Positions 2,436 to 56,210 of a stretch of DNA of 64,000 nt are shown piece after piece. The stretch spans positions 25,962 through 89,961 of IMG/VR virus record IMGVR_UViG_3300042876_000418, one strand, 5' to 3'. The translations under genes were made by a program, and so were the position numbers. Source of the stretch: a virus. Under the pieces are notes generated by a model. That model did no database searches. It had not been told where the DNA came from and saw only the letters and a program-made list of their open reading frames with translations. How positions within the stretch are numbered: position 1 is the first letter of the stretch; every line of letters begins with the position of its first letter.

Positions 2436-2651
2436 ATGAGACAGAATCGTAAATTCAAGCCACAAATCAGGCCCCGGCGGAAAGCCGTCAAACTGTATTT
2501 CACTCCCACAGGGCGAAGGATAACGGACGCGATTGTCCAGCACGAAGAGCGGGTCATCTGCCCGATCTGCGAGGCGGCGGTTATTCAGGATGAATTCTTG
2601 AGTATCAACGGGCGCGAATTGTGCCTGTATTGTTTTGAGAATGGAGAATAA
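2436..2651 (+). CDS. small Zn-finger protein
   Basis: CPIC...CLYC; AAAGGA RBS. Confidence 0.6.
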   Translation: MRQNRKFKPQIRPRRKAVKLYFTPTGRRITDAIVQHEERVICPICEAAVIQDEFLSINGRELCLYCFENGE

Positions 2652-2655
2652 AAAC

Positions 2656-2877
2656 ATGAATAAACCTTGGTTGCAAAACGTTGATCCGACACAAGAATGC
2701 AATCCCGATGATTCCGCGATTCGGGCGGGATTGCCTGAAATCGACAAGCCGGTATTTGTCAAACTAGAAGGCGACAAAAACAAGAAAGAGTACAACGCCC
2801 GTTATCTGGGCGGTAATTTATGGACGGTTGCAGGTAAGATCGTGTCTACCTGCTCAATCGCAAATTGGCGTTATTAG
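2656..2877 (+). CDS. hypothetical protein
   Basis: ATG at 2656 after GGAG. Confidence 0.6.
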   Translation: MNKPWLQNVDPTQECNPDDSAIRAGLPEIDKPVFVKLEGDKNKKEYNARYLGGNLWTVAGKIVSTCSIANWRY

Positions 2878-2889
2878 GAGAATTGAACC

Positions 2890-3642
2890 ATGAAAACTAT
2901 CTGTATCACCAACCAAAAAGGCGGGGTAGGAAAGACTACCACTGCCGTTAGTCTGGCCCACGGGCTGGCCCTACTGAAAAAGAAAGTGCTGTTGATCGAC
3001 TTTGACCCCCAGGGTCAAGCCGCAACCTGCCTGAATATGGAGCCGCGCAACGATGTATTCAACTGGCTGATTAGCGAGTCTCCCTACGACTCATGTGCCC
3101 AGGAAACCAGCCGGCCCCGCTTGCACCTGCTGGCAGGTAGCAAGAAAACGGCCACCGCTCAGACGGTCATCACCTCCAATCGTGAGCCGGTTGAATTTAT
3201 CAAGCAAGCCATCCAAGTGCTACTCAAAGGCCGCGGCTTCGATTACGTAATCCTGGACACGGCCCCCAGCCTGGGCGGCATTCAAGAGTTGGCTATTTTC
3301 GCTTCTGACTACCTGGTTATCCCGGCTTCGTGCAATTTCCTCCCGGTCGAGTCCATCGGTAAGACGCTTGAGACCGCCGGCGTCTTACGTGAGCGATTCG
3401 GGTGGGGTGGGCATCTGATTGGAATCCTCCCTACATTCCTTGACGAAAGGACCAACGAGTCGACTACCGTGTACAACGAGATCCGCGCGAAATTCAACGG
3501 GCAGACATTGACCCCGATTCACGCGGCTACTGTCCTTTCCGAGTGCCCGGCTGAAGGGTTGACCATCTTCGAGAAAGCACCCAAGAGTCGGGCGTCCAAC
3601 GAGTATGGCGCTCTTGTGCGCAAAGTCGCTGAGGTGAAATAA
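2890..3642 (+). CDS. parA: ParA/Soj family partition ATPase
   Basis: Deviant Walker A NQKGGVGKTT, IDFDPQG, DYVILDTAP. Confidence 0.93.
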   Translation: MKTICITNQKGGVGKTTTAVSLAHGLALLKKKVLLIDFDPQGQAATCLNMEPRNDVFNWLISESPYDSCAQETSRPRLHLLAGSKKTATAQTVITSNREPVEFIKQAIQVLLKGRGFDYVILDTAPSLGGIQELAIFASDYLVIPASCNFLPVESIGKTLETAGVLRERFGWGGHLIGILPTFLDERTNESTTVYNEIRAKFNGQTLTPIHAATVLSECPAEGLTIFEKAPKSRASNEYGALVRKVAEVK

Positions 3643-3950
3643 TGGCCCGCCGATCTTCCACCGCTGCAATTTCAGATGAACCCGTTTCGGCATTCCTGCC
3701 GCCGGCGGAATCGCGCTCAAAGCGTGATCGTAGTTGGGAAGCCGAACAACGCAAGAAGGGTGTGGTCACCTATCGAGGAATCCCGTCCGATGTCACAGCG
3801 AAAATTCGCGCCGTGTCCGAGGAGTTGGATGTCCCCGTGGGCGACGTGGTGCGCCTGTTTTTGGAGCACGGGTTAGCCCAATACAAGGCAGGTGTGCTGC
3901 CCATGAAACCCCGGCTAATCAAGGGCAAGTATGGTCTCTACGGAAAATGA
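3642..3950 (+). CDS. ParG-like ribbon-helix-helix partition adaptor
   Basis: Small gene coupled to parA; flexible N-terminus then VTYRGIP..helix..VGDVVRLFL RHH pattern. Confidence 0.65.
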   Translation: MARRSSTAAISDEPVSAFLPPAESRSKRDRSWEAEQRKKGVVTYRGIPSDVTAKIRAVSEELDVPVGDVVRLFLEHGLAQYKAGVLPMKPRLIKGKYGLYGK

Positions 3951-3987
3951 GATATTTTTTTGTCCTCAGCCTTGCCGCTTGCGTCAA

Positions 3988-4052
3988 TGTAAGCGGGCTG
4001 TAAGCGGCATGTAAGCGGCGTGAATACTTGACGCTTGCGGAGTGGTAAGCGG
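3988..4052 (+). repeat. TGTAAGCGG direct repeats, putative centromere (parS-like)
   Basis: Copies at 3988, 3999, 4010 (11-bp period) plus GTAAGCGG at 4045; immediately downstream of the parA-RHH pair. Confidence 0.6.
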
Positions 4053-4154
4053 TAAGACTACAGGACGGGCTGAGACAAAAATTCACGGTATAGACGCAGG
4101 ATTTTACACAGTAGTGAAAATAGGCCCGGAATCTGGTAAAAGGTAGGCGTAAGG

Positions 4155-4682
4155 ATGATGAAGAAAACGAAAGTCGGTAACGGAATATTCACATCGTTTG
4201 AAATTGCGAATGGGGCGTGGTTCACCTGTACCCGATCCGCCTGTGGACATACGGAGTATTCAAGCGGGCGGTATTATCTCAAGCGGGCGAATCGCTGCCC
4301 GGTGTGCAAGTATGGGCTGTTCCTGTCTGAATTCTTTCTGAAAACTTACACCGCCTGGCTGGAAGAAAACGAGCCAACATTGCAACGGATGATTGCAGAT
4401 CATCACCGCTACCTGGCTACCCTGCGCGAAAAGTCGTTTTCCATCATGCTCAACGCCGCCGTGGATTGGCAATACCTGACGGTCAAAGCCGGGCGCATGG
4501 CCCATAAAAGCGAGTGCGATTCGTGGCTGATGACGCGGTACGGAATAGACGAATGCGCCGCGCGGGATATCACCAACACGATCACGTCCGGCCCGCGCCA
4601 CTTTATCACCGGTAACGATGGGGTATCGTGGATCGCTACCCGGCCAGAGCCGAAGGAGGAAGACTACCCAGACTTGAAATAA
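4155..4682 (+). CDS. Zn-ribbon hypothetical protein
   Basis: CTRSACG...CPVC; 175 aa. Confidence 0.7.
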   Translation: MMKKTKVGNGIFTSFEIANGAWFTCTRSACGHTEYSSGRYYLKRANRCPVCKYGLFLSEFFLKTYTAWLEENEPTLQRMIADHHRYLATLREKSFSIMLNAAVDWQYLTVKAGRMAHKSECDSWLMTRYGIDECAARDITNTITSGPRHFITGNDGVSWIATRPEPKEEDYPDLK

Positions 4683-4795: not shown

Positions 4796-5143
4796 ATGAT
4801 TACAGTAAATTGTCACAGTGGCGGTACGGACTATCAGGCAGAAATTGAACCCGGAAAAAACATCACGGTCAAGGCGACGGTAGTAGTCGGCTATACCAGT
4901 TCACCTATCACCCCGAAAACGCAAGATTTTGAAACCTCTTTCAACCTGGGCGACAAAGCCGAATATGATAGTTATAACTTATCGTATTACGGGACGATTA
5001 CCAAAATTTCCCCTAAGCAGGTTTGGATTGAGGATCACGGCACGACTCGCCGCCTGAAGATCGAAGATTTCTGCTGGCGCAATTATCGGTTCAATCTCAA
5101 GCAAACCATTGAAAGTAATTCCTTGACTCTGCAAAGTATTTAG
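4796..5143 (+). CDS. hypothetical protein
   Basis: 115 aa; CTGGAGGGAAC RBS. Confidence 0.75.
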   Translation: MITVNCHSGGTDYQAEIEPGKNITVKATVVVGYTSSPITPKTQDFETSFNLGDKAEYDSYNLSYYGTITKISPKQVWIEDHGTTRRLKIEDFCWRNYRFNLKQTIESNSLTLQSI

Positions 5144-5156
5144 GTATAGAGGGAAT

Positions 5157-5534
5157 ATGAAACCAATTTTCTATAAAGCCGAATCGCGCTGGATATGTGC
5201 CCCAGGTGGGCTACTTGACCCAACCGAGTGCCGCTTGATCGTGGACGAATTGAACGCTACCGGATTCAAGATCGGGGTCTATGTCCGATTACGGACTGGC
5301 GGCACAATCGGAATTGTTACCGATATTGACGGTTGCAAGCCGGTTGTTAGTTTCGAGAACGGCATTGAGGATACCATAGCCGATTCTCTGCCCGCCACTT
5401 ATTATGAGGTCGTGTCTCAAACGGCCTATGAAGCCGAACTGCAAGCCAACGCCGAATACGTGGAAGAGTGCGCCCGGCGTAATCAGGGAGCCTCCGAAAA
5501 ATGGGGCTTTGTGTTTCAGGAATATGGAGGATGA
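5157..5534 (+). CDS. hypothetical protein (SH3/KOW-like middle)
   Basis: FKIGVYVRLRTGGTIGIVTDI. Confidence 0.65.
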   Translation: MKPIFYKAESRWICAPGGLLDPTECRLIVDELNATGFKIGVYVRLRTGGTIGIVTDIDGCKPVVSFENGIEDTIADSLPATYYEVVSQTAYEAELQANAEYVEECARRNQGASEKWGFVFQEYGG

Positions 5535-5535
5535 A

Positions 5536-6003
5536 ATGAAAATCGCTGTTATCCTTTTACTCACCGCTGTTATCGCCTTGGGATTGTGGTCTTTGATCCC
5601 GCCACAAAGTACTGCCGCGACTCGTCTTGACGTGGTTGAGGGTTGGGTATCCAGCCTGGACAAGCCGTCTACCAATCGCGGGATCGCTTACCATACCGAA
5701 AACTCAGGCATGACCTACGTTAGCCCGGCGGGCGGGATGGCGATCATGAAATGGGATGTTGACGGCGTGGGTGTTGGATTCGTGCTGCTCCGCAACCGGG
5801 GCGCGTGGTACAACGATAACGGCGGGTTTATCTCCAGCCCGACTACATGGGCCACTATTCGAGATGGAATCGTGGCGCTCGGATGGAGTGAGGCTGAAAC
5901 CGGAAAACAGAATCCCGGTAAAATGTCGGTAATGAAGGACGAAATCGACTCCGATGCAGGCTTGTCAATCTCTGATTTTTTGGCGAAGTTGGAAGGAAAA
6001 TAA
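5536..6003 (+). CDS. secreted or membrane-anchored hypothetical protein
   Basis: Start MKIAVILLLTAVIALGLW after GGAGG; hydrophobic N-terminus. Confidence 0.65.
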   Translation: MKIAVILLLTAVIALGLWSLIPPQSTAATRLDVVEGWVSSLDKPSTNRGIAYHTENSGMTYVSPAGGMAIMKWDVDGVGVGFVLLRNRGAWYNDNGGFISSPTTWATIRDGIVALGWSEAETGKQNPGKMSVMKDEIDSDAGLSISDFLAKLEGK

Positions 6004-6005
6004 AC

Positions 6006-6218
6006 ATGTGGCGCGATGGAATTTTTATCGAACAGGGTGATTACGAATCCGATCTGATTTACTGCTCGGAGTGCGAGGTTCTTTTTAGCGGATCGCCAGA
6101 AATGCGCATTGAGCAGAAAACGGGCGGGAATCCGGGCGAAGAATTCCCGATTGACGTGGTGATTGCAAAGTACGCCTGTACAAATTGCGGGCATACGTGG
6201 GAAGAGGTGCAAGGATGA
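6006..6218 (+). CDS. small Zn-ribbon protein
   Basis: CSEC...CTNC. Confidence 0.6.
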   Translation: MWRDGIFIEQGDYESDLIYCSECEVLFSGSPEMRIEQKTGGNPGEEFPIDVVIAKYACTNCGHTWEEVQG

Positions 6219-6640
6219 AACAATCCGATCTTGATAAGCTGGAAGAGTTGCGCGCCAAAGCGGATATGCCGCGCGTGATGAAATTTAGCCCGGATAGTTT
6301 GAACGGGTGGAACACAATGTATATGCTCGTGCCTGAGTTCGGTAAGGTGCCCGGAATCGGGATTGAAATTTGTGAGCCAGTCCCAGGATTCGGGGATCTG
6401 GAAAAGCAGAAAACCCGCGCTGAGTATGTTGCCCTGGTCTGCAATATCGCCCCTGCCCTGGCTAAATCTAACGCAGCTATGATCGCCATCATGCGTGACG
6501 CTATTGAGCGGGCGATTGAAGCACAAGAGGAATGGGCGGACGTTGAATTGCCCTACGCGCCCGAGTGGGTGTACCCACTCCGCCAGATCGTCAATCTACT
6601 GACGAATGCCGTCGCTCAGGCTGAGGGGGAATCGTCATGA
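6215..6640 (+). CDS. hypothetical protein
   Basis: ATGA overlap; GAGG RBS. Confidence 0.65.
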   Translation: MKQSDLDKLEELRAKADMPRVMKFSPDSLNGWNTMYMLVPEFGKVPGIGIEICEPVPGFGDLEKQKTRAEYVALVCNIAPALAKSNAAMIAIMRDAIERAIEAQEEWADVELPYAPEWVYPLRQIVNLLTNAVAQAEGESS

Positions 6641-6954
6641 CACAATGGAGATTGGAAATCGACAACGATGATGACGACCCAAAGAAATGCGTAAACGCGC
6701 CGATCATGGCATGGGTCTGGGACGGTGAAAATTCCGTAATTTGTCGCCCAATCCGAGATGAACGCGACCGCAAAAACATGCGCCTGATTACTGCGTCTCC
6801 CAGGCTGCTTGAGGCGTGCAAACTTCAAATTTCATTTCTGCGCACGCTGCGCGATAATTACCCGGACTTATGGGATCAAATCGTCAACATATCATCCGTC
6901 ACAGCATGGGACGAATTGAAAACCGCTATTCGTGAGGCTGAGGCGGAATCATGA
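6637..6954 (+). CDS. hypothetical protein
   Basis: NMRLITASPRLLEAC resembles the common phage NARLIAAAPELLEA motif. Confidence 0.7.
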   Translation: MTQWRLEIDNDDDDPKKCVNAPIMAWVWDGENSVICRPIRDERDRKNMRLITASPRLLEACKLQISFLRTLRDNYPDLWDQIVNISSVTAWDELKTAIREAEAES

Positions 6955-7379
6955 CTATTCGATTTCTTCTCCAGCACATCCGCCGTCCTGTCAAGCCTGA
7001 TGAAACCGTACCTGACTCAGACTGGCATACCATGACCGCGCATACGAGCGAGAGCGCCGCGGATAAGGCGCTCGGTCGTGCTTACGGTAAAATGATGGAA
7101 CGTTGCGGAATCAAATGGGATGACTCGTTCCGGGTTACGCCGGCGAAGGATACCGTAATCTCGTTTTCGTTCATCTGCAAAGGTTACGCGAATCCAGATC
7201 AGCACGAGTTTACCCCATGCCCTGATAACGCGATGGAAGTTACCACGGTGATATGGAAGTCTAAAACCGCAAAACCGCCCATCGTAACGTCACGGCCCTG
7301 GTATTCACAATTGCAATGCGAAAACTGCAATGAACTCGAAAGGCAGTGCTACGAAAATAAAAACCGGGCAGTGAGTTAG
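6951..7379 (+). CDS. hypothetical protein
   Basis: 142 aa; coupled to previous gene. Confidence 0.65.
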   Translation: MTIRFLLQHIRRPVKPDETVPDSDWHTMTAHTSESAADKALGRAYGKMMERCGIKWDDSFRVTPAKDTVISFSFICKGYANPDQHEFTPCPDNAMEVTTVIWKSKTAKPPIVTSRPWYSQLQCENCNELERQCYENKNRAVS

Positions 7380-23332: not shown

Positions 23333-26253
23333 TATTTCGCCTTACGGGTGCCGCGTTTGGGGGCTGAGGTAGGCTCTGCCGGGGTGACAGTCGCGGGTTT
23401 GACTGGTTCGGGTGGCTTGACAGGCTCCGGCTCCGGGATCTTATCCACCACCTTCGCTAACGGACGCTCGAACACCTTTTCTTGATCTTTCCACATTTCA
23501 TCAAACTCCGCACGCGCCTTCATAATAGCGTCCTGCGCTTGCTGAGGGGTGATGGGCGCGGGTTCTGGGGCTGGGGTGGGCATAGTTACCGGCGCAGCCT
23601 GTTGCACTGCCTGAGCGGGCGGGGGAGGCGTGGGGCGCGATACGACCCGGAATAACTCGGTACGCATCAACTCGTTTACGTCCTCGGGCAGGCAGTCCAC
23701 AAAGCGCTCAAACTGATTGTTGCCCGCGCGGTACTGATGACCATTGGCGACAAACGTTCTGGCCCCAACCGTGGTGCCGGTGAACTCAAGGCGCACTTTA
23801 GACGCCGGCGGGGTGGATGGTACATACTGGATATCTTCCTGGTTGCCCCCGGCCCGTTTCGCTTTCAGAATTTCATTGGCGGCTTCACTGCCACCACAAG
23901 ATGCACATGGACTCATTGTCTTTTCTCCTGTGAAGTAACTCCCGTAACGTTCGCTCAGAACAGCCAGGATCCGCGATCCTTGATCGTTCGTAGTTCCGTC
24001 CGGGTTGATAGCTTTCATTCTGCGGAAGCCAGAGCCTAACCGGTAAATCAATAGTGGCTCTGCAATCCGCTTTCCACAAACGCCGCGCGTCGCCAGATTG
24101 AGGAATAACTCCCAATCCTCCCACGACTCCAACTCTTCATCGAAAGGATATTGCTTCATCGTTTCTGTTGGAATCAGCACCGAAACCGGGTGGTACATTT
24201 TCCACTCGTTGCGGTTCGGCTCTCCCGCCTCTCCCGTTGTCCACTTCCCTTTATCCAGCGCCAGCCAATCCGAGTACACATACCCGCCGTCAAAAGCCGC
24301 AGTCATCTTCTCCAGGCAGGTTGCGTCAAGTAGATCGTCAACGTCAAGAAAGAACACCAACGGCGCACGGGCCGCGCGTATCCCAATGTTTCGCGCTACG
24401 CCGGCCCCGCCACGTCTGCTCTTGTTGTCGATCACCCTTGCGAATGGGTAGCAAGATGGAATCTCTAGTTTATGCCCGGTGTCGTTGACAATCACGACTT
24501 CCCATGGGTAAAACGTCTGCCCGAGCAGGGTATCCACCGCGCTGGACACGTAACCCTCATGCCCAGGCCCTACCGGAACAATCACACTTACCGCCGGCTG
24601 GACATTGGCCCGCACCAACGGACGCGCCACGGGTGCCCCCATCGGATAATTCTTGCTTACCATCCAAGGATTTCCAACCTCAATCGAACGGTAAACCTTC
24701 GTTCTTGACGCCGATCCCTCATGACCGCGGTAAAGGAACAGTGGATCTGACGTCACCTTTTTGGCCCGGAATCCAACCGATAACCCGCGCGTCCAAAATT
24801 CCGCATCCTCACCTGGCGCGTACTCCTGTTTGTACCCACCTGCCCGTCGCCACATTTCGCGCCGAAACATACAGGCTGAGGGGATGCAGTTGGAGGGAGG
24901 ATTGCTTACCGCCGATTGAATCTTCCAATCGAAGTTAGGCGGCCAATGTGATACCGATTGTATGTCCCCGTCCGGGTTGGTGATAGCCAGGCCAGAATAA
25001 GCGATTCCCAATCCGCGATCACCCGCTAACGCCGGCTGTAGCACCTGAATGAAGCGCTTATCCAGACGATCATCCGCGTCAAGACTGACGATGAATTCAG
25101 CCTTTGCCGCCGCGATCCCATTATTCCGCGCCCCGGCTACCCCGGTATTAGTCTGATAGATTCCGGTGAATGCGATTCCCGCGCTTCTAACTTTATCTTC
25201 CATCCCTTGAATCGCCACCACACTATCATCCGTTGACCCGTCATCTACCACGATCAACTCAGCGGGCTTCACTGCCTGGCTGATGACACTATCTATCGCC
25301 GCGCCCACCCAACCCGCGTAATTGTGGCATGTGATTACCACCGCCACGTCGTGCCGCTGTGGGTAGCGGGCGATCACATCGAACAGGCGGGCATACCGTT
25401 CCATCACGCGCGGCCACGTGTAGCGCTCCGCTGTAGCCCGCGCCCCGGCAGATAGGGCCGCACGATTCGCGCGGATGTACTCCACCCCTTCCACCAGACC
25501 CGCCACGTCGCCCGGCTTGACCAGGTACCCGGACTCGCCGTGCTTGACAATATCCGAAGTGCCGCCCCAATCCCACCCGAGTACCGGAATCCCACACGCC
25601 ATTGCTTCAAGAGTCCCGATTCCGAAGGTCTCCATCGTGGTAGCAAGGTAGATGTCTGCCCCCGCAATAATCCCTTTCATCTGCTCAAACGGGATATTGC
25701 CGGTCAGGCGCATGGAGTCGGGTACGGGCAGTTTGTCAGGGGAGAAGGTAGACGTAACCTTGATTCCTCTATTCGCTAACTCCCATGCTGGTTGAGATTG
25801 ACACACATCCCCCTCACGATTCTTGTTGTAGAGGATGTAACCCCCATTTTCGCCCGGTCTGAATTCGTCAAGCTCAATCCCGTGGGGAATCACCACCGGG
25901 TTGAAGCGCATATCACGCCGGAAAGGCTCACCTACCCACGAGGAAGGCACGGTCACGGCGATAGACTGGCGCACGGATTCGACAATGCTGCCGTTAGCAT
26001 CGTGGTGCCAGGCTGAAAATTGATTGTGGGGGGTATCTTGCCAGTATAGCCCGTGTACCATCGTCAAGTCGATTCGGGGCCAATACGAAGGTTTGCCGAT
26101 ATGGGCCGCGTACACGTCCACATTGTCGCCCGGTTCTGATATCAGATCAATTCCTAATCCAGGTAGATATTTCCATTGCGCCAATACCACCTGGCCTATG
26201 CCGGTATTCCGGGTAACTTGATCAGGGGACAGGCTAAGGCAAACTTTCATCAT
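23332..26253 (-). CDS. multidomain glycosyltransferase (GT4 + two GT2) with C-terminal extension
   Basis: ETFGIGTLEAMACGIPV (GT4); VVDDGSTD..ARN..LDADD and VNDTG..ARN..LDVDD (GT2); Pro-rich tail. Confidence 0.9.
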   Translation of the reverse strand: MMKVCLSLSPDQVTRNTGIGQVVLAQWKYLPGLGIDLISEPGDNVDVYAAHIGKPSYWPRIDLTMVHGLYWQDTPHNQFSAWHHDANGSIVESVRQSIAVTVPSSWVGEPFRRDMRFNPVVIPHGIELDEFRPGENGGYILYNKNREGDVCQSQPAWELANRGIKVTSTFSPDKLPVPDSMRLTGNIPFEQMKGIIAGADIYLATTMETFGIGTLEAMACGIPVLGWDWGGTSDIVKHGESGYLVKPGDVAGLVEGVEYIRANRAALSAGARATAERYTWPRVMERYARLFDVIARYPQRHDVAVVITCHNYAGWVGAAIDSVISQAVKPAELIVVDDGSTDDSVVAIQGMEDKVRSAGIAFTGIYQTNTGVAGARNNGIAAAKAEFIVSLDADDRLDKRFIQVLQPALAGDRGLGIAYSGLAITNPDGDIQSVSHWPPNFDWKIQSAVSNPPSNCIPSACMFRREMWRRAGGYKQEYAPGEDAEFWTRGLSVGFRAKKVTSDPLFLYRGHEGSASRTKVYRSIEVGNPWMVSKNYPMGAPVARPLVRANVQPAVSVIVPVGPGHEGYVSSAVDTLLGQTFYPWEVVIVNDTGHKLEIPSCYPFARVIDNKSRRGGAGVARNIGIRAARAPLVFFLDVDDLLDATCLEKMTAAFDGGYVYSDWLALDKGKWTTGEAGEPNRNEWKMYHPVSVLIPTETMKQYPFDEELESWEDWELFLNLATRGVCGKRIAEPLLIYRLGSGFRRMKAINPDGTTNDQGSRILAVLSERYGSYFTGEKTMSPCASCGGSEAANEILKAKRAGGNQEDIQYVPSTPPASKVRLEFTGTTVGARTFVANGHQYRAGNNQFERFVDCLPEDVNELMRTELFRVVSRPTPPPPAQAVQQAAPVTMPTPAPEPAPITPQQAQDAIMKARAEFDEMWKDQEKVFERPLAKVVDKIPEPEPVKPPEPVKPATVTPAEPTSAPKRGTRKAK

Positions 26254-51276: not shown

Positions 51277-52797
51277 CTAAACCCGCCCGATATGAAGCAG
51301 GGCATACATAAAATCGAAGTATTCAGGGTCTTTGGTGGCAAGCTCCCACCGTCCGGCGCTCGTGGCGAATTGGCCCATGCCCATAGAGACGATCTCGGTA
51401 GAGCCGTGATCGTAGATTTTACCCATATAGGCGTTGATAAACTTATCCTGTTTTGCGTACTCACTGGATCCATAAGCGCGATTGCCGGTAATTTGTTTAA
51501 GTGGGCGTTGCGATTCGCCTCCCGTTCTACTTGACAAAAACGCCTTAGCTGATTGGCGCACTAACGGATCCCTGTCCTCTAAGATGTGGCCTAGCTCGTG
51601 AGCCACGACTCCGGCAGAATCATGCTTAGAAATATTGATTTGCGTTCCATCGGCGTTTGCGCTCGCCCGCCCTGTAATCGCTTTCACAATAACCGACGTG
51701 CGCTCCATAAGGGGATTGCTACCAGCCACTTTGTTGAACACGGTAAATCCATCAGCTACGCTTGAATTTATATTTGATGGCGATTCAGGATGGGCATTGC
51801 CTGGGCTGCCGTGATCAAGGAAAGAATCTCCGCCTTTCATGATGTTATCAATCGCATAAGTGCGATCTGTTAATTCAGATAATTTGGTATGCATCTCCAT
51901 GTATTCATCATACTCTTTATCACTAAGCCCTGCGATTCCCCTGTCAATATATTTCTGTACAATCGGAATAAGGGCTTTCGCCTCTCTTTGGTTTTCTTCA
52001 CGAAATTTTCCGATAGCGCCGGTCGCTTTTTGCGGCATTGCCCTATCTCTGGCTTTCGCCGCTGCATCCATTGCGATCTCAAGCGCCCGCCGCCCATCTG
52101 TTTCAGAAATTATCTTATACTCCACCTCAGCCTTTATGGCGTCAAGATCCGCCGCTTTGGCGTCATCAGTTTTCGGGGTATTGGCGTCAAGTTTGATGTG
52201 CGCCAGTTTGCTTTTTAGATTCCGCTTGTAATCTTCGTACTCGAAAAACTTTTTATAATACGCATCGCTTTTCGCGTCATACTCGCTTTGCGCTTCCAAG
52301 TATTTCGGATCATCTAAGGACGCTTTTTGTTCTATGTAGATTTCGCGTTTCTTGGCTGAAGCGGTGTCCTTCTCTGCTTTCCTTTGCGCCAGTTCTTTTC
52401 TTAAGTCAGTCCCTTGTTTCTTTATCGCCTTGATTTGATCCTCTACACTAACCGTCCGAGTCGCGGCCTTCGCCTTTTCCGCCCTGGATTGCGTTTCTAC
52501 CACCTTAGCCCGGCCCGCCTTTACCTTCTCTTGTGCTGCCATGAATTCAGGATTTGCCCGCAATTCTGACTTGAATCGCTCCGCCGCCTGCCGCCCGCGT
52601 TTCTCGAATCCCGCCTGTAGTCGGGCGTATTTCACCTTGTCGTATGATTCGCCCGCCGCCGCGTCTGTAAATGCGCTTGACTGCGGAGCGCTGCCCCCAT
52701 GCTTGCCAGGCCGCCCGGAATGGCCGAAATTGCCGCTGCCGGGGCCACCCTTGAGGGATTGGATAAAGTATTCTGCGAACTGGTCGGTGATGGTCAT
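51277..52797 (-). CDS. head-associated protein with C-terminal zincin metallopeptidase
   Basis: N-terminal KGGPGSGNFGHSGRPGKHGGS; coiled coil; HELGH...TEIVSMG. Confidence 0.75.
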   Translation of the reverse strand: MTITDQFAEYFIQSLKGGPGSGNFGHSGRPGKHGGSAPQSSAFTDAAAGESYDKVKYARLQAGFEKRGRQAAERFKSELRANPEFMAAQEKVKAGRAKVVETQSRAEKAKAATRTVSVEDQIKAIKKQGTDLRKELAQRKAEKDTASAKKREIYIEQKASLDDPKYLEAQSEYDAKSDAYYKKFFEYEDYKRNLKSKLAHIKLDANTPKTDDAKAADLDAIKAEVEYKIISETDGRRALEIAMDAAAKARDRAMPQKATGAIGKFREENQREAKALIPIVQKYIDRGIAGLSDKEYDEYMEMHTKLSELTDRTYAIDNIMKGGDSFLDHGSPGNAHPESPSNINSSVADGFTVFNKVAGSNPLMERTSVIVKAITGRASANADGTQINISKHDSAGVVAHELGHILEDRDPLVRQSAKAFLSSRTGGESQRPLKQITGNRAYGSSEYAKQDKFINAYMGKIYDHGSTEIVSMGMGQFATSAGRWELATKDPEYFDFMYALLHIGRV

Positions 52798-55700
52798 TTG
52801 ATTCTCCCGAGGTGGAGTAAAGCATAAGTGAAGTTGAAATATTCGGGGTCGCGCTTTGACATGTAAAATCTACTCTCGGAATCCATCATATACTGGATAC
52901 CCATCGACACAATCTCGGTAGCCGCCGGGTGATCGCGATTCCCGTAAATCTTACCAACGTAAGGGGACATAAAACTATCTTTGATGGCTACTTCGTCATC
53001 TCGATATGGGTATCCGGTAAGGTCTCTTAGTTTTTCAACTGGCTGGTATTCCGTTCTCCACCTGAGAAATTCGGTAGCCAGCACGTTTATTGCGGGGTCG
53101 CGAGACTCAAGAGCATGGCCTAATTCATGGGTGACGTGCCACGGTGCCACCTGAGAATTGACAGATATGCCCGCGCCATTGAAATAAGCCCGGTCGCTAT
53201 TGTCGTAAGTAACTTTTATAGGGGATCGTTCCATGAGTGGGTTATGTCCAGCCAGGCGATTGAATGCGTCGAATCCCTCGTTGACTTTATCTTTGAAAAT
53301 CACAGCGGAGTCGACATCACTCCTGGCCTGCCCGGCCTCATTCTGAGAGAACAGCGATTCGCCCATTGCATCCCCAAGACGATTCGCCGCCTGTATACGC
53401 CCTTTTAATTCAATTTCCCGATCATGAAGTTTAGCCCATTTATCGCGCGTTTTTTCCGTATCAAGTAGCGGTCCCGTAACAAGCAACGGAAGGATACTAT
53501 CAAGTTCTGCCTGATGTTCTGCTTTGATCTTCGCAATAGCGCCGCCTACGCTTTCACTCATAACTTTTTGACGCAACTTATCAGCCGCTCGCATTGCAAT
53601 AGTCAGCGCCTTTTGCCCGTCCGTTCTGGCAATCTGTTCGTAGTCGCTTTTTGCCGTGTGAAAATCAGCAAGAGCTTGCTTAGATTCGTTTGAGATTTCG
53701 TCCTCACGGGCCATGATTGCATACGCTCTTGGAGCAGATACCGTTTTCTTGTACTCTCTGGTTTCGGCTTCAGCTTGCTTGATTTCTTCCAACTTTGCCG
53801 CGTGCTCAGTTGTTAGCTTGTCTAATTTGTTCTTGAGTCGGGTGTCATCAGGAGCGGCAAGGTGTTTGATTCGTGCCTCTACCATTTTCGCGGATAATGC
53901 ACTTTCTTCTTTTCGCTTTGTCAGTTCGTTTCTACTCAATTCGTCAACGCGGCTTACCATTGCGGCACGCTCTTTATCAAGCGCCCGCCTCTCTGCATTG
54001 AACACCTCCAACTTTGCGCCCGCCTCTACGATTCGCGCCCGCCCCTCATTGATCCGCCCCTGCGCTTGCATATACTCAGGATTGGATCGCAAGGTATCCT
54101 GAAACTTCGCCGCTAACTTTTCGCCGCGCCGCTTCAGCCCGGCCTCCAGCCGCGCATACTTGGCTTTGTCGCCCAGCGATTCGCCCTGTGGTGCAGAGCC
54201 GCCGTGTTTACCGGGCCGGCCTGAGTGCCCAAAGTTACCGCTCCCCTTGCCGCCCTTTAGCGCTTCGATCAATTCAGATTCTAGCCGCTCTTTCACCTGG
54301 TAGGAATAGTTGGGGAGGACCAATTCCCAACCGCGAATCTTGAGAGGATTCCATTCGATTCCTCTTTGGATACATTGCTGGCAATTGTGAACGACAAACC
54401 CGTTAGCGATATAGTGATGAACGTCTTCAACCTCAAAATTGTAAACGTAGACTCTTTCGTGTTTATTGGGTATAATATATCTATGATTAACACTGTCAAG
54501 ACGCAATTCATTTGTAACTTTTGCGGGAAAGAGTTCATCCCGCATTCGAGAGGGGGCAAGCATATGTACTGCTCTATCTTGTGCCGAAACTATGCGAATT
54601 CCAAGAAAAACGTAGCAAAGATTGGAAGGTGCTGCGTAAAATGCGGGCGTTATATGGTTCATCGCATTTACGATACTTGCCCAACCTGTGGAGGCCCAAG
54701 AAGAAACCCGCGCCCAACGTCTAAACCAAGAGTTATAAGAAATAAACGACATAGTCGCTGGACAGATTCCCAGATTGAGTATCTTATGTCTCACTACACT
54801 ACAGATGGATGCAAAGAGGTCGGAAAAGCTCTTGGGCTTGATCCTATAAAAGTCAGGACCAAAGCGAACAACTTGCATCTTACAATCAGCAAAGAGACGG
54901 CAAAAAGAATAGTTTATGAAACCTCCAGGGTTCGCATGACGGAATCCAACCCAATGAAAAACAAAGAATCTCTCGATAAGATGAACAAGTTTTGGGAAGA
55001 TCATCCCGAGAAAGATAGGCAGAGATTTGAGAGTTTCCGCGCATCGTCTTGCGAATACCAAAAGACTCATCCAAGCAAACTTGAAATAAAGTTCATGACG
55101 ATTCTTGACCAAATTGGAATCAGGTACGAGTCCTATTTTATGATCAAGGCTAAATTTATTGTCGATGTAAAAATCGAAAATTTTATTATTCAGGTTGACG
55201 GCGGATACTGGCATGGTCACCCGCGATTCAATCCACTTACCGAAAGGCAAGCGAAACAGCAAGCCAGGGATCGCGCCCAGGACGCCTATCTTACCGCCTG
55301 TGGATACACCGTCATTCGTATTTGGGATGAAGACGTTACTAAAGATAAAGTTATCGCTACTCTCAAGCAATACGGATTGATCTGAAGGCTTTAATTCGTC
55401 TGCTCTAATCCATCCTCTTTGGGTCAAAAAGGGGTGATTGGGAGTACAGGAAACAGACTTGTTACCAGATTTTACGGTAACAAGTTTTCCTTTATACTCT
55501 CTCTTGAATACCGTGATAACTTTTTTGGGACCGTTCATAGTGGTCACGATATCGCCAGTCCGAATTAATTCTATCGGCTTTTTACCGGACGGAGTCTCAA
55601 TCGTTGTCCCTTTCGGGAAACAATGCTCTACTTTTGGAGATGGATCTAGCACCCAATAGCAGTCGTAATCCCCGTCCGCTCCCTCTGGCTTTGCCATGTC

Positions 55701-56210
55701 TGCCCCCTGGACAGGAACGATCCTCCAGGAACAGCGGTCGTTTTGCCCACAGGAGCTTGAGAGGTCTCCAGGAATTGCCGGTAGTGGCAAACTTCCAATT
55801 GTACCCGCCCAATACGGCTCCACAATTGCGCCGGTGTACATCTCTGCCCGATTCTTCCACGCCTTCCAGGGTGCCCCCTCGTAATCAAACCACGTCTTTG
55901 GGGTGTACCCTGCCGCCGTGGCGTTGGCCACTTCGATATTGATCGTGTCCTTGAACCCAGCCAGGAAGTCAAGTTGCTTGCGTAGTTGATCCGCCGCCCG
56001 CTTGAATTCAGTCTCAGCCAAGGTACCCTTACCCGATCCGAGCATATAGGCCGCCGCGATGTGCCGGGATAGAGACAGTCTCATCGCCGTGTGCCACTGG
56101 TCAAGGGTGATGTTCCCATATTGGAACGCATCGAATAACTTGACGATATCCGCCTGGAATCCGTCGAACAACGGAATCAGGTCAGCGGGCAGGCCGGCGC
56201 TACTGGTCAT
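52794..56210 (-). CDS. MuF-like minor head protein with intein and C-terminal zincin domain
   Basis: Follows the portal; spliced EHCQQC; KGGKGSGNFGHSGRPG; HELGH...TEIVSMG. Confidence 0.75.
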   Translation of the reverse strand: MTSSAGLPADLIPLFDGFQADIVKLFDAFQYGNITLDQWHTAMRLSLSRHIAAAYMLGSGKGTLAETEFKRAADQLRKQLDFLAGFKDTINIEVANATAAGYTPKTWFDYEGAPWKAWKNRAEMYTGAIVEPYWAGTIGSLPLPAIPGDLSSSCGQNDRCSWRIVPVQGADMAKPEGADGDYDCYWVLDPSPKVEHCFPKGTTIETPSGKKPIELIRTGDIVTTMNGPKKVITVFKREYKGKLVTVKSGNKSVSCTPNHPFLTQRGWIRADELKPSDQSVLLESSDNFIFSNVFIPNTNDGVSTGGKIGVLGAIPGLLFRLPFGKWIESRVTMPVSAVNLNNKIFDFYIDNKFSLDHKIGLVPDSNLVKNRHELYFKFAWMSLLVFARRCAETLKSLPIFLGMIFPKLVHLIERFFVFHWVGFRHANPGGFINYSFCRLFADCKMQVVRFGPDFYRIKPKSFSDLFASICSVVRHKILNLGICPATMSFISYNSWFRRWARVSSWASTGWASIVNAMNHITPAFYAAPSNLCYVFLGIRIVSAQDRAVHMLAPSRMRDELFPAKVTNELRLDSVNHRYIIPNKHERVYVYNFEVEDVHHYIANGFVVHNCQQCIQRGIEWNPLKIRGWELVLPNYSYQVKERLESELIEALKGGKGSGNFGHSGRPGKHGGSAPQGESLGDKAKYARLEAGLKRRGEKLAAKFQDTLRSNPEYMQAQGRINEGRARIVEAGAKLEVFNAERRALDKERAAMVSRVDELSRNELTKRKEESALSAKMVEARIKHLAAPDDTRLKNKLDKLTTEHAAKLEEIKQAEAETREYKKTVSAPRAYAIMAREDEISNESKQALADFHTAKSDYEQIARTDGQKALTIAMRAADKLRQKVMSESVGGAIAKIKAEHQAELDSILPLLVTGPLLDTEKTRDKWAKLHDREIELKGRIQAANRLGDAMGESLFSQNEAGQARSDVDSAVIFKDKVNEGFDAFNRLAGHNPLMERSPIKVTYDNSDRAYFNGAGISVNSQVAPWHVTHELGHALESRDPAINVLATEFLRWRTEYQPVEKLRDLTGYPYRDDEVAIKDSFMSPYVGKIYGNRDHPAATEIVSMGIQYMMDSESRFYMSKRDPEYFNFTYALLHLGRIK
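54448..54476 (+). promoter_or_regulatory. internal promoter for the nested endonuclease
   Basis: TAGACT-N17-TATAAT, 6 nt before ATG 54483. Confidence 0.7.
54483..55385 (+). CDS. DUF559/Vsr-like (EDxHD-type) endonuclease nested antisense in the intein
   Basis: Zn fingers CNFC..CSILC, CVKC..CPTC; HTH-like WTDSQIEYL; PSKLE..VD..IQVDGGYWH..D..GYTVIRIW. Confidence 0.88.
   Translation: MINTVKTQFICNFCGKEFIPHSRGGKHMYCSILCRNYANSKKNVAKIGRCCVKCGRYMVHRIYDTCPTCGGPRRNPRPTSKPRVIRNKRHSRWTDSQIEYLMSHYTTDGCKEVGKALGLDPIKVRTKANNLHLTISKETAKRIVYETSRVRMTESNPMKNKESLDKMNKFWEDHPEKDRQRFESFRASSCEYQKTHPSKLEIKFMTILDQIGIRYESYFMIKAKFIVDVKIENFIIQVDGGYWHGHPRFNPLTERQAKQQARDRAQDAYLTACGYTVIRIWDEDVTKDKVIATLKQYGLI

Follow-up and report, generated by a model that had tools for sequence, protein, structure and literature searches.

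A predicted homing endonuclease gene encoded antisense within a class 1 intein of an uncultivated rhizosphere phage

Inteins normally carry an in-frame endonuclease domain in the slot between their splicing regions. Here we describe a 64,000-nucleotide stretch of phage DNA (IMG/VR virus record IMGVR_UViG_3300042876_000418, positions 25,962 to 89,961; the whole stretch is referred to as the window) in which a class 1 intein interrupts a head-morphogenesis-type gene and the endonuclease slot of that intein is occupied by a Vsr/DUF559-like nuclease gene on the opposite strand. The two reading frames share the same triplets, and the intein frame is kept open through the avoidance of three codons in the nuclease gene. 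We consider it probable that the locus is a nested selfish element, namely a class 1 intein with a reverse-oriented homing-endonuclease cassette. The source record comprises 89,961 bases and is about 90% complete, and the public runs that contain window DNA are rhizosphere metagenomes.

Results

A class 1 intein with complete splicing regions interrupts the host gene

The features of the locus are as follows, with positions given as those of the window.

52794..56210, minus strand: host gene, an open reading frame (ORF) for a 1138-residue precursor (N-extein, intein and C-extein); it adjoins the portal gene, which it follows
55623..56210, minus strand: N-extein, 196 residues ending in ...PKVEH, delimited by the ORF and by alignment with the intein-less protein P0017
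54384..55622, minus strand: intein, 413 residues (197-609 of the precursor), class 1 (Cys1 ... His-Asn, then Cys+1)
55341..55622, minus strand: N-terminal splicing region of the intein (CFPKGT...TPNHPFLT...GWIRADEL...), matched by a profile of 10 related inteins with an expectation value (E) of 5.1e-39
54516..55340, minus strand: intein linker, 275 codons that are the antisense reading of the nuclease gene, with 0 stops
54384..54515, minus strand: C-terminal splicing region of the intein (...VYVYNFEVEDVHHYIANGFVVHN), matched by its own profile (E 4.5e-17)
52794..54383, minus strand: C-extein, 529 residues, starting CQQCIQRGIEWNPLKIRGW
54483..55385, plus strand: predicted homing-endonuclease gene, 300 residues plus stop, with its ATG at 54483 within the ORF 54366..55385
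54448..54476, plus strand: sigma-70-type promoter-like site TAGACT-17-TATAAT (10 of 12 matches), 6 nucleotides (nt) ahead of the ATG in leaderless-type geometry

An initial annotation, made from the letters of the window alone, had placed an intein at 54384-55622, in the gene for the 1138-residue protein, and these coordinates proved exact. The Pfam family Intein_splicing matched the precursor (E 7.2e-15; 55.5 bits, cutoff 35.8), and matches above the Pfam cutoffs were likewise obtained for PT-HINT, Hint_2 and Vint, three Hint families. The marks of a class 1 intein are all present: Cys197 (CFPKGT), TPNH (within CTPNHPFLT), which we take to be intein block B (TxxH), and VVHN-C at residues 606-610, where the hyphen here and below marks a splice junction. 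The HN-C ending is common to 10/10 related inteins, and the C-block profile match extends over 54381-54515, thereby taking in the codon of the +1 Cys. Between the two splicing regions, we found no Pfam match and no recognisable domain in the linker (54516..55340). Removal of the intein would give a predicted spliced product of 725 residues (1138-413).

To place the intein relative to proteins that lack it, we searched with the N-extein and obtained two proteins without intein domains, P0017 (714 residues) and P0018 (1968 residues). P0017 aligned with the window exteins on both sides of the insertion, at 69% identity for the N-extein (197 aligned positions) and 52% for the C-extein, and its site reads AENCQTC. 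P0018 aligns on both sides in the same way and reads AEHCQTC across the site. The window junction after splicing is predicted to be EH-CQQC, compared with ENCQTC and EHCQTC in the intein-less counterparts, and the insertion site takes the form (A/T)(E/D)H-CxxC in 9/10 related inteins. Since P0017 and P0018 have no intein, the element is sporadic among related phages. Contigs assembled from 4 DNA runs, two of which are probably the source samples, contained none that spans the exteins without the intein, a result that is uninformative either way. In L007, one of the related loci described below, the intein (5845-6990) sits three residues later, HCPE-C...HN-CLGY, such that the second Cys of HCxxC is intein residue 1.

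Two freshwater metagenome runs yielded contig pieces about 85-95% alike to the window at 54257-54610 and 55170-56145. These pieces span both ends of the intein, namely its junctions with the N-extein at 55622 and with the C-extein at 54384 (contig data, with a small word share), which suggests that this intein and nuclease also occur in a related phage of another habitat.

The opposite strand encodes a Vsr/DUF559-like nuclease

The nuclease ORF sits between the intein N block (55341-55622) and C block (54384-54515), with an overlap at each end. The final 45 nt of the N-terminal splicing region double as the 3′ end of the nuclease gene, and the C-terminal splicing region carries, on the opposite strand, the putative promoter of the nuclease together with the initial 33 nt of its gene. 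We found 15 full-length homologues of the nuclease (33-48% identity), the N-termini of which back the ATG at 54483. The encoded protein combines two zinc ribbons (CxxC...CxxxC) with a middle region, an NPM motif and a nuclease domain of Vsr/DUF559-like type (..VDGGYWHGHPRF..RD..QD.YL..CGY.V.RIW). In the family alignment 44 columns are invariant, among them the CxxC pairs and WHGHPR.

The C-terminus of the window nuclease matched DUF559 in Pfam (E 2.6e-5; 24.5 bits, cutoff 20.6), and among the 16 aligned family members we observed matches to DUF559 in 14, to MTES_1575 in 15 and to Vsr in 9. When the PDB was searched with a sequence profile, the best match was the DUF559-like entry 3hrl (E 0.0011). 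The homologues and their invariant columns indicate that the plus-strand ORF is a real gene, for a probable Vsr/DUF559-like PD-(D/E)xK nuclease. With regard to the domain labels in the initial annotation, the zinc-finger and DUF559 parts held, and the helix-turn-helix part is weak, resting on a single PHROG match (E 6e-4).

Neither blastn of the intein nor tblastn of the nuclease gave a match among cultured phages at E 1e-5. A tblastn search of 50,697 phage records gave no full-length nuclease relative; its partial matches were free-standing mycobacteriophage nucleases, at 29-38% coverage and E about 1e-5.

The intein frame is maintained by avoidance of TTA, CTA and TCA

Host codon 576 occupies 54483-54485, so the nuclease and intein frames share the same triplets, as had been proposed from the letters alone. 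In this register, TTA, CTA and TCA are the only sense codons of the nuclease gene that give a stop on the other strand. The intein minus frame from 55622 to 54384 contains 0 stops, and the other two minus frames contain 20 and 40. In agreement with this, the nuclease gene uses TTA, CTA or TCA at 0 of its 300 codons, of which 13 encode Leu and 16 encode Ser. The three codons account for 358/14,256 codons (2.5%) in 40 other long ORFs of the window, and just 1/40 of those ORFs has none. For the window alone, the chance of zero is 0.0044 given the residues and the codon usage of the window and 1.2e-4 by position-specific base composition, where 9.0 are expected.

We therefore extended the count to related loci, classed solely by whether the opposite strand has intein blocks on either side of the nuclease gene and not by ORF continuity. 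The loci fetched with the nuclease alignment were 28 from viral contigs, 80 of 93 confirmed metagenome loci and 4 genome loci. Separate profiles for the nuclease and for each of the two intein blocks (N and C) were built from ten loci and the window and searched in all six frames of every locus. This gave 15 non-redundant intein-flanked loci (window, L001, L002, L003, L006, L007, L008, L033, L038, L043, L047, L049, L050, L051 and L113) with 4140 nuclease codons. Duplicates were dropped (L004/L005/L045 of L003, L030 of L001, L055 of L007, L048 of L008, L032 of L031 and L040 of L039), and L029, L034/35, L036, L046 and shorter distant relatives, with no intein or extein detected, fell in neither class.

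Across the 15 loci we observed 2 TTA/CTA/TCA codons compared with 117.4 expected from position-specific composition. Backward stops are absent from 14/15 loci, over a GC range of 0.33-0.57, and the other two antisense frames of these loci have 6-35 stops each. Both exceptions fall in L043, where the intein is split. All 10/10 long minus ORFs that were submitted to Pfam gave intein or Hint matches. As controls, six full-length free-standing genes of the family carry 0, 0, 16, 10, 8 and 9 backward stops (the two zeros being L031 and L037), and the same-strand split form L053 has 13. These counts indicate that the open intein frame is maintained by selection through avoidance of TTA, CTA and TCA, as the initial annotation had suggested from the single gene; the intein frames of the homologues, which it had proposed to inspect for stops, have none outside L043. 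A Fisher test of Leu plus Ser codons (0/437 compared with 69/201, P 1.9e-39) was superseded, because its class of "one continuous ORF" presupposes zero stops.

The two strands are under different selection

Comparison of substitution rates on both strands, also proposed in the initial annotation, was carried out on 11 pairs of embedded loci. In the nuclease frame, the ratio of nonsynonymous to synonymous substitution rates (dN/dS) was 0.17-0.25 in the 4/11 pairs with unsaturated dS; dS was saturated in the remaining 7/11. In the intein frame, read antisense, dN/dS was 0.97-1.33 in 11/11 pairs. Differences in the 11 pairs accumulate at third positions of the nuclease codons. The nuclease gene is thus clearly under purifying selection by this measure. 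The dN/dS of about 1 in the intein frame indicates that the middle of the intein, some 275 residues, is a passenger peptide for which the absence of stops is the sole detectable constraint. The locus is thus a clean, quantitative example of two-strand coding, in which selection acts on a protein sequence in one strand and demands no more than an open frame in the other. It also suggests that the endonuclease slot of an intein can accommodate an effectively random peptide of about 275 residues, which could be useful for intein engineering.

A promoter-like site lies within the C-block coding sequence

The nuclease gene had been predicted to have its own promoter in the C-terminal coding region of the intein, and the site at 54448-54476 has counterparts in related loci. 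An exact TATAAT occurs at most 60 nt upstream of the nuclease start in 9/12 related loci, compared with 108/10,192 background 60-base windows (1.06%). In the embedded loci that have it, this TATAAT always lies inside the intein C-block coding sequence. Since it falls in differing frames of the intein ORF across loci, conservation at the DNA level is indicated. Fuller sites were found in L001 (TTGACA-16-TATAAT) and L033 (TTGACT-16-TATAAT). In most loci the leader is 29-46 nt long, some with a Shine-Dalgarno-like stretch as judged by eye, and the leaderless-type arrangement of TATAAT, 6 nt and ATG is common to the window, L037 and L039. The promoter presumably serves to transcribe the nuclease gene.

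The nuclease lineage occurs free-standing, within contiguous inteins and between split halves

One continuous frame runs through the N block, linker and C block in the window and in 13 other loci. The embedded nucleases are mostly 29-52% identical to each other (range 29-81%). In addition to these, the N-extein profile revealed ten non-redundant loci in which the nuclease is free-standing (L031, L037, L039, L041, L042, L044, L052, L054, L061 and L091). There, the nuclease gene is convergent (tail-to-tail) with an intein-less copy of the host gene, with a 3′ overlap of 20-46 nt or a gap of 10-13 nt, and the host proteins keep a motif of the (E/D/S)xC..C type 40-60 codons before their stop. Among the full-length free-standing genes, those other than L031 and L037 have 8-16 backward stops. 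Representative free-standing and split loci are given below, with positions in each locus.

L031, 5983-7540: free-standing nuclease gene, tail-to-tail with an intein-less host gene
L043, 3826-7194: split intein with an antisense nuclease between the halves; IntN ORF 4987-7194, IntC ORF 3826-4158

Phage free-standing homing endonuclease genes beside their target gene are familiar from T4 seg and mob. The ten free-standing relatives adjoin their intein-less host gene in the same way, at a distance of 40-60 codons from the CxxC site that the intein occupies in other loci. Unlike such genes, the window gene lies inside its target gene, and removal of the interruption is predicted to occur at the protein level through the intein.

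Embedded genes are interspersed with free-standing ones in the nuclease tree; L044, for instance, has L003/L045 as its sister group, and L031 has L033. Broadly the same groups are recovered in a tree of the intein blocks, with weak support from a short alignment. The nuclease opposes the direction of the host gene in every arrangement save L053. The reverse orientation inside the intein may have been inherited from the free-standing state. The proposal in the initial annotation that the locus is a composite of an intein and a reverse-strand nuclease gene of free-standing type is supported.

In L043, the IntN ORF stops just past the N block, and the C block and C-extein are encoded by a separate 110-residue IntC ORF that starts with an ATG of its own. 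The presence of just 2 backward stops compared with 11.6 expected makes this split look recent. A terminase-like gene upstream in L043 (7198-9795) appears by eye to bear an intein as well. L053 (1-1719) is a same-strand "fractured gene" with the N block, nuclease and C block in three ORFs.

Shorter relatives of the nuclease were found antisense inside an N6_N4 DNA methyltransferase gene, for instance in L012 (4379-6905) and L069 (4895-6977). In L069 the methyltransferase gene is split at Pfam profile position 60/61 into two ORFs. We found no intein blocks in the methyltransferase loci, and a group I intron as the carrier was rejected on finding no Rfam match at gathering scores. Backward stops number 0 in L067 and L084 and 1 in L068, L073 and L082, compared with 3.7-6.5 expected, and the antisense frame is nearly stop-free though in frame with neither gene half. 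This could reflect either inheritance from intein-embedded ancestors or selection for ribosome transit.

Among cultured phages, the intein N block has matches of 37-42% identity in Gordonia phage genes for MuF-like minor capsid proteins, and the same intein family occurs in head morphogenesis, minor head or MuF-like genes of Gordonia, Salmonella and Escherichia phages. Three such records that we opened each contain an exact-register antisense open frame of 346-360 codons without annotation in GenBank:

L110, Gordonia phage Nordenberg (MuF-like gene), 2597-3676: antisense frame with a FIDGEG-type motif and no Pfam match
L111, Salmonella phage sidste, 2498-3535: antisense frame with a weak HTH_7 match only
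L112, Escherichia phage vB-Eco-KMB36, 2522-3574: antisense frame with weak HTH_7 and MTES_1575 (E 1.3e-3) matches

The HTH_7 matches in these frames have E values of 4e-4 to 5e-3. The Nordenberg motif, which no Pfam match backs, we take to be LAGLIDADG. Reverse-strand genes of this kind are unannotated in the public phage records examined (for example sidste and vB-Eco-KMB36), gene callers dropping overlaps.

Discussion

Relation to described antisense and split inteins

The initial annotation implied that an endonuclease opposite an intein was a new arrangement, and this did not hold. In the text of a 2025 preprint, Gosselin, Arsenault and Gogarten (bioRxiv 10.1101/2025.01.02.630785) report, in actinophage proteins, full inteins with VSR-like endonucleases in anti-sense orientation, find the non-canonical homing endonucleases spread over four host types, including minor capsid, and propose that a free-standing endonuclease gene invaded an intein. 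The basic layout is thus already known, and the window, by comparison with the cases in that text, is a new, diverged example; its value is confirmatory. Both have an unsplit intein with an antisense nuclease between the splicing blocks, a Vsr-like core with extra N-terminal parts and an in-frame middle without a recognisable fold; the host of the window is an uncultivated rhizosphere phage, whereas the cases described in the preprint are in actinophages. The text of the preprint also cites anti-sense LAGLIDADG inteins (Gorbalenya 1998, Gogarten 2002) in Synechocystis DnaX and a Chloroflexus SpoVR-like protein. As far as they are described there, these likewise have the nuclease opposite a contiguous intein, and they differ from the window in being LAGLIDADG rather than Vsr-like and in having cellular hosts. 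The text of the preprint, as distinct from its supplements, contains no TTA/CTA/TCA count, two-frame dN/dS or promoter analysis (the word "promoter" occurs 0 times). What we add is the flank-based stop count and the contrast in dN/dS between the two frames, the conserved promoter-like site inside the C-block coding sequence, and a series, in a single nuclease lineage, of forms that are free-standing, contiguous or split.

A second point of comparison is provided by the "fractured genes" of Dassa et al. 2009 (PMC2677866), whose relevant passages deal with split inteins that have, between their halves, a free-standing gene for a Vsr-like endonuclease. As in those systems, the window has a Vsr-like cassette of free-standing type, with its own putative control elements, in the endonuclease slot of an intein. 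Unlike them, the window intein is contiguous (one ORF) and its nuclease is encoded by the other strand; no reverse-strand endonuclease is described in those passages of the paper that concern orientation or antisense. L043 and L053 are split forms of the kind those passages describe. The C-terminal domain of the window nuclease is of the Vsr/DUF559 type, as is reported for the I-Bth0305I/EDxHD homing endonucleases (Taylor et al. 2011, PMC3239194). The double zinc ribbon at its N-terminus lies outside the matches to I-Bth0305I/DUF559 proteins.

A nested selfish element and its alternatives

If the locus is a nested selfish element, a class 1 intein would have inserted just ahead of the first Cys in a conserved E(H/N)-CxxC motif, with its endonuclease slot filled by a complete reverse cassette consisting of a sigma-70-type promoter and the 300-residue ORF. 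Host mRNA would be translated through the reverse complement of the nuclease gene, giving a peptide required only to be stop-free, and this would be achieved because the triplets are shared and the nuclease gene never uses TTA, CTA or TCA. The Hint halves would fold around the linker, excise the 413-residue intein, restore EH-CQQC and yield the 725-residue protein. The nuclease, produced from its own transcript, would cut intein-less alleles in co-infecting phages, and recombinational repair would then copy the intein together with the nuclease gene.

Several observations weigh against this account. The promoter match in the window is within chance, with 5 promoter-like sites in the region compared with 2.2 +/- 1.5 in shuffles, and the exact TATAAT is missing in 3/12 related loci. 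The match of the nuclease to the I-Bth0305I structure 3r3p (profile positions 194-291) is not significant (E 0.17). The free-standing genes of L031 and L037 also have 0 antisense stops, and the shorter relatives antisense in methyltransferase genes, without an intein, have 0-1; these cases imply that stop avoidance is not exclusive to covalent continuity of the intein. Lastly, no near-identical intein was found in divergent exteins among the loci sampled. Given the deep divergence of the related loci (mostly 29-52% nuclease identity) and the co-divergence of intein and nuclease, recent homing is unsupported and long vertical descent fits equally.

It is accordingly worth weighing whether the element is a fixed vertical relic, in which the intein splices and its frame is kept by selection on the head gene, and the nuclease no longer homes, having either another role, such as cutting competing phages, or simply not yet decayed. 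We judge this rather unlikely. The broadly congruent intein and nuclease trees, the deep divergence of all sampled loci, the failure to find near-identical inteins in divergent exteins and the freshwater pieces, which at about 85-95% also carry the intein junction, would fit a relic, as would the vertical-looking patterns that the text of 10.1101/2025.01.02.630785 reports for most VSR-like cases. However, the nuclease is under clear purifying selection (dN/dS 0.17-0.25) and its catalytic-type motifs are invariant, P0017 lacks the intein precisely while its N-extein is 69% identical, and the nuclease lineage is free-standing by an intein-less host gene in 10 loci, as is usual for mobile endonuclease genes. 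A further explanation is that the intein is functionally split, its halves being made separately by internal initiation and joined by trans-splicing, with the frame open for ribosome run-through or to avoid polarity. L043 is a true split form with an antisense nuclease between its halves, and the shorter relatives that lie between the halves of N6_N4 methyltransferase genes show 0-1 antisense stops without any intein. Nevertheless, the continuous frame in the window and 13 other loci needs both register and a length divisible by three, neither of which is needed for transit, and no start codon with a ribosome-binding site ahead of the C block came to light, although no search aimed at one was made; we find a functional split very improbable. 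To the idea that the open antisense frame is a matter of chance or composition and the plus-strand ORF is not a functional gene, we attach practically no credence. While the probability for the window alone, about 0.004 to 1e-4, is not negligible across many scanned windows, and another gene of the window runs 321 codons without TTA, CTA or TCA, we regard chance as already refuted by the 2 stops compared with 117.4 expected over 15 independent loci, which at 29-81% identity are not near-duplicates. The conservation of the nuclease over its full length and its dN/dS well below 1 also speak against it.

More tentatively, one nuclease lineage tied to the CxxC target of a head gene may have passed through a series from free-standing, to antisense in a contiguous intein, to a position between split halves, with the reverse orientation inherited from the free-standing state and with selection for ribosome transit acting on reverse cassettes generally. 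We hold this to be possible and still doubtful. If the series is true, split inteins would arise by nonsense mutations in an unconstrained linker, and inteins with antisense passengers would be a direct source of natural split inteins. Linking the contiguous, split and intein-free arrangements would bear on how inteins acquire endonucleases and on the origin of split inteins.

The host protein and neighboring genes

The initial annotation called the host product a head protein. In support of this label, the protein's C-terminal part matches phrog_19443 ("minor head protein"), along with phrog_33618 and phrog_20397, as well as a virion structural protein of Planktothrix phage PaV-LD, and the gene neighbors the portal gene. 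The label gains no support from Pfam Phage_Mu_F or NCBIfam, neither of which matched the exteins or the intein-less L031 protein. The N-extein matches phrog_24776, of unknown function (E 8.2e-5), a family also matched by the exteins of L001, L002 and L050 and by the intein-less L031 protein. Related inteins occupy genes annotated as MuF-like or head morphogenesis. It is plausible from these matches that the host gene works like a minor head protein, and membership in the MuF-like group would be a label by position and association.

The neighboring 895-residue gene (56200-58887, minus strand), a portal gene by position, contains a second, conventional intein (CLSGEA...VVHN-C) with an in-frame LAGLIDADG endonuclease; in Pfam, LAGLIDADG_2 matched with E 3.2e-25 and Intein_splicing with E 4.5e-8. 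With two intein types in the host gene and the portal gene, the phage appears to have adjacent intein-bearing head genes of both architectures. Within the region 51277-54260, the motif LKGGxGSGNFGHxGRPGxxGGS is present both in the C-extein and in the adjacent gene (51277-52797). The same motif is repeated many times along the 1968-residue P0018, where it resembles a linker or processing site between modules.

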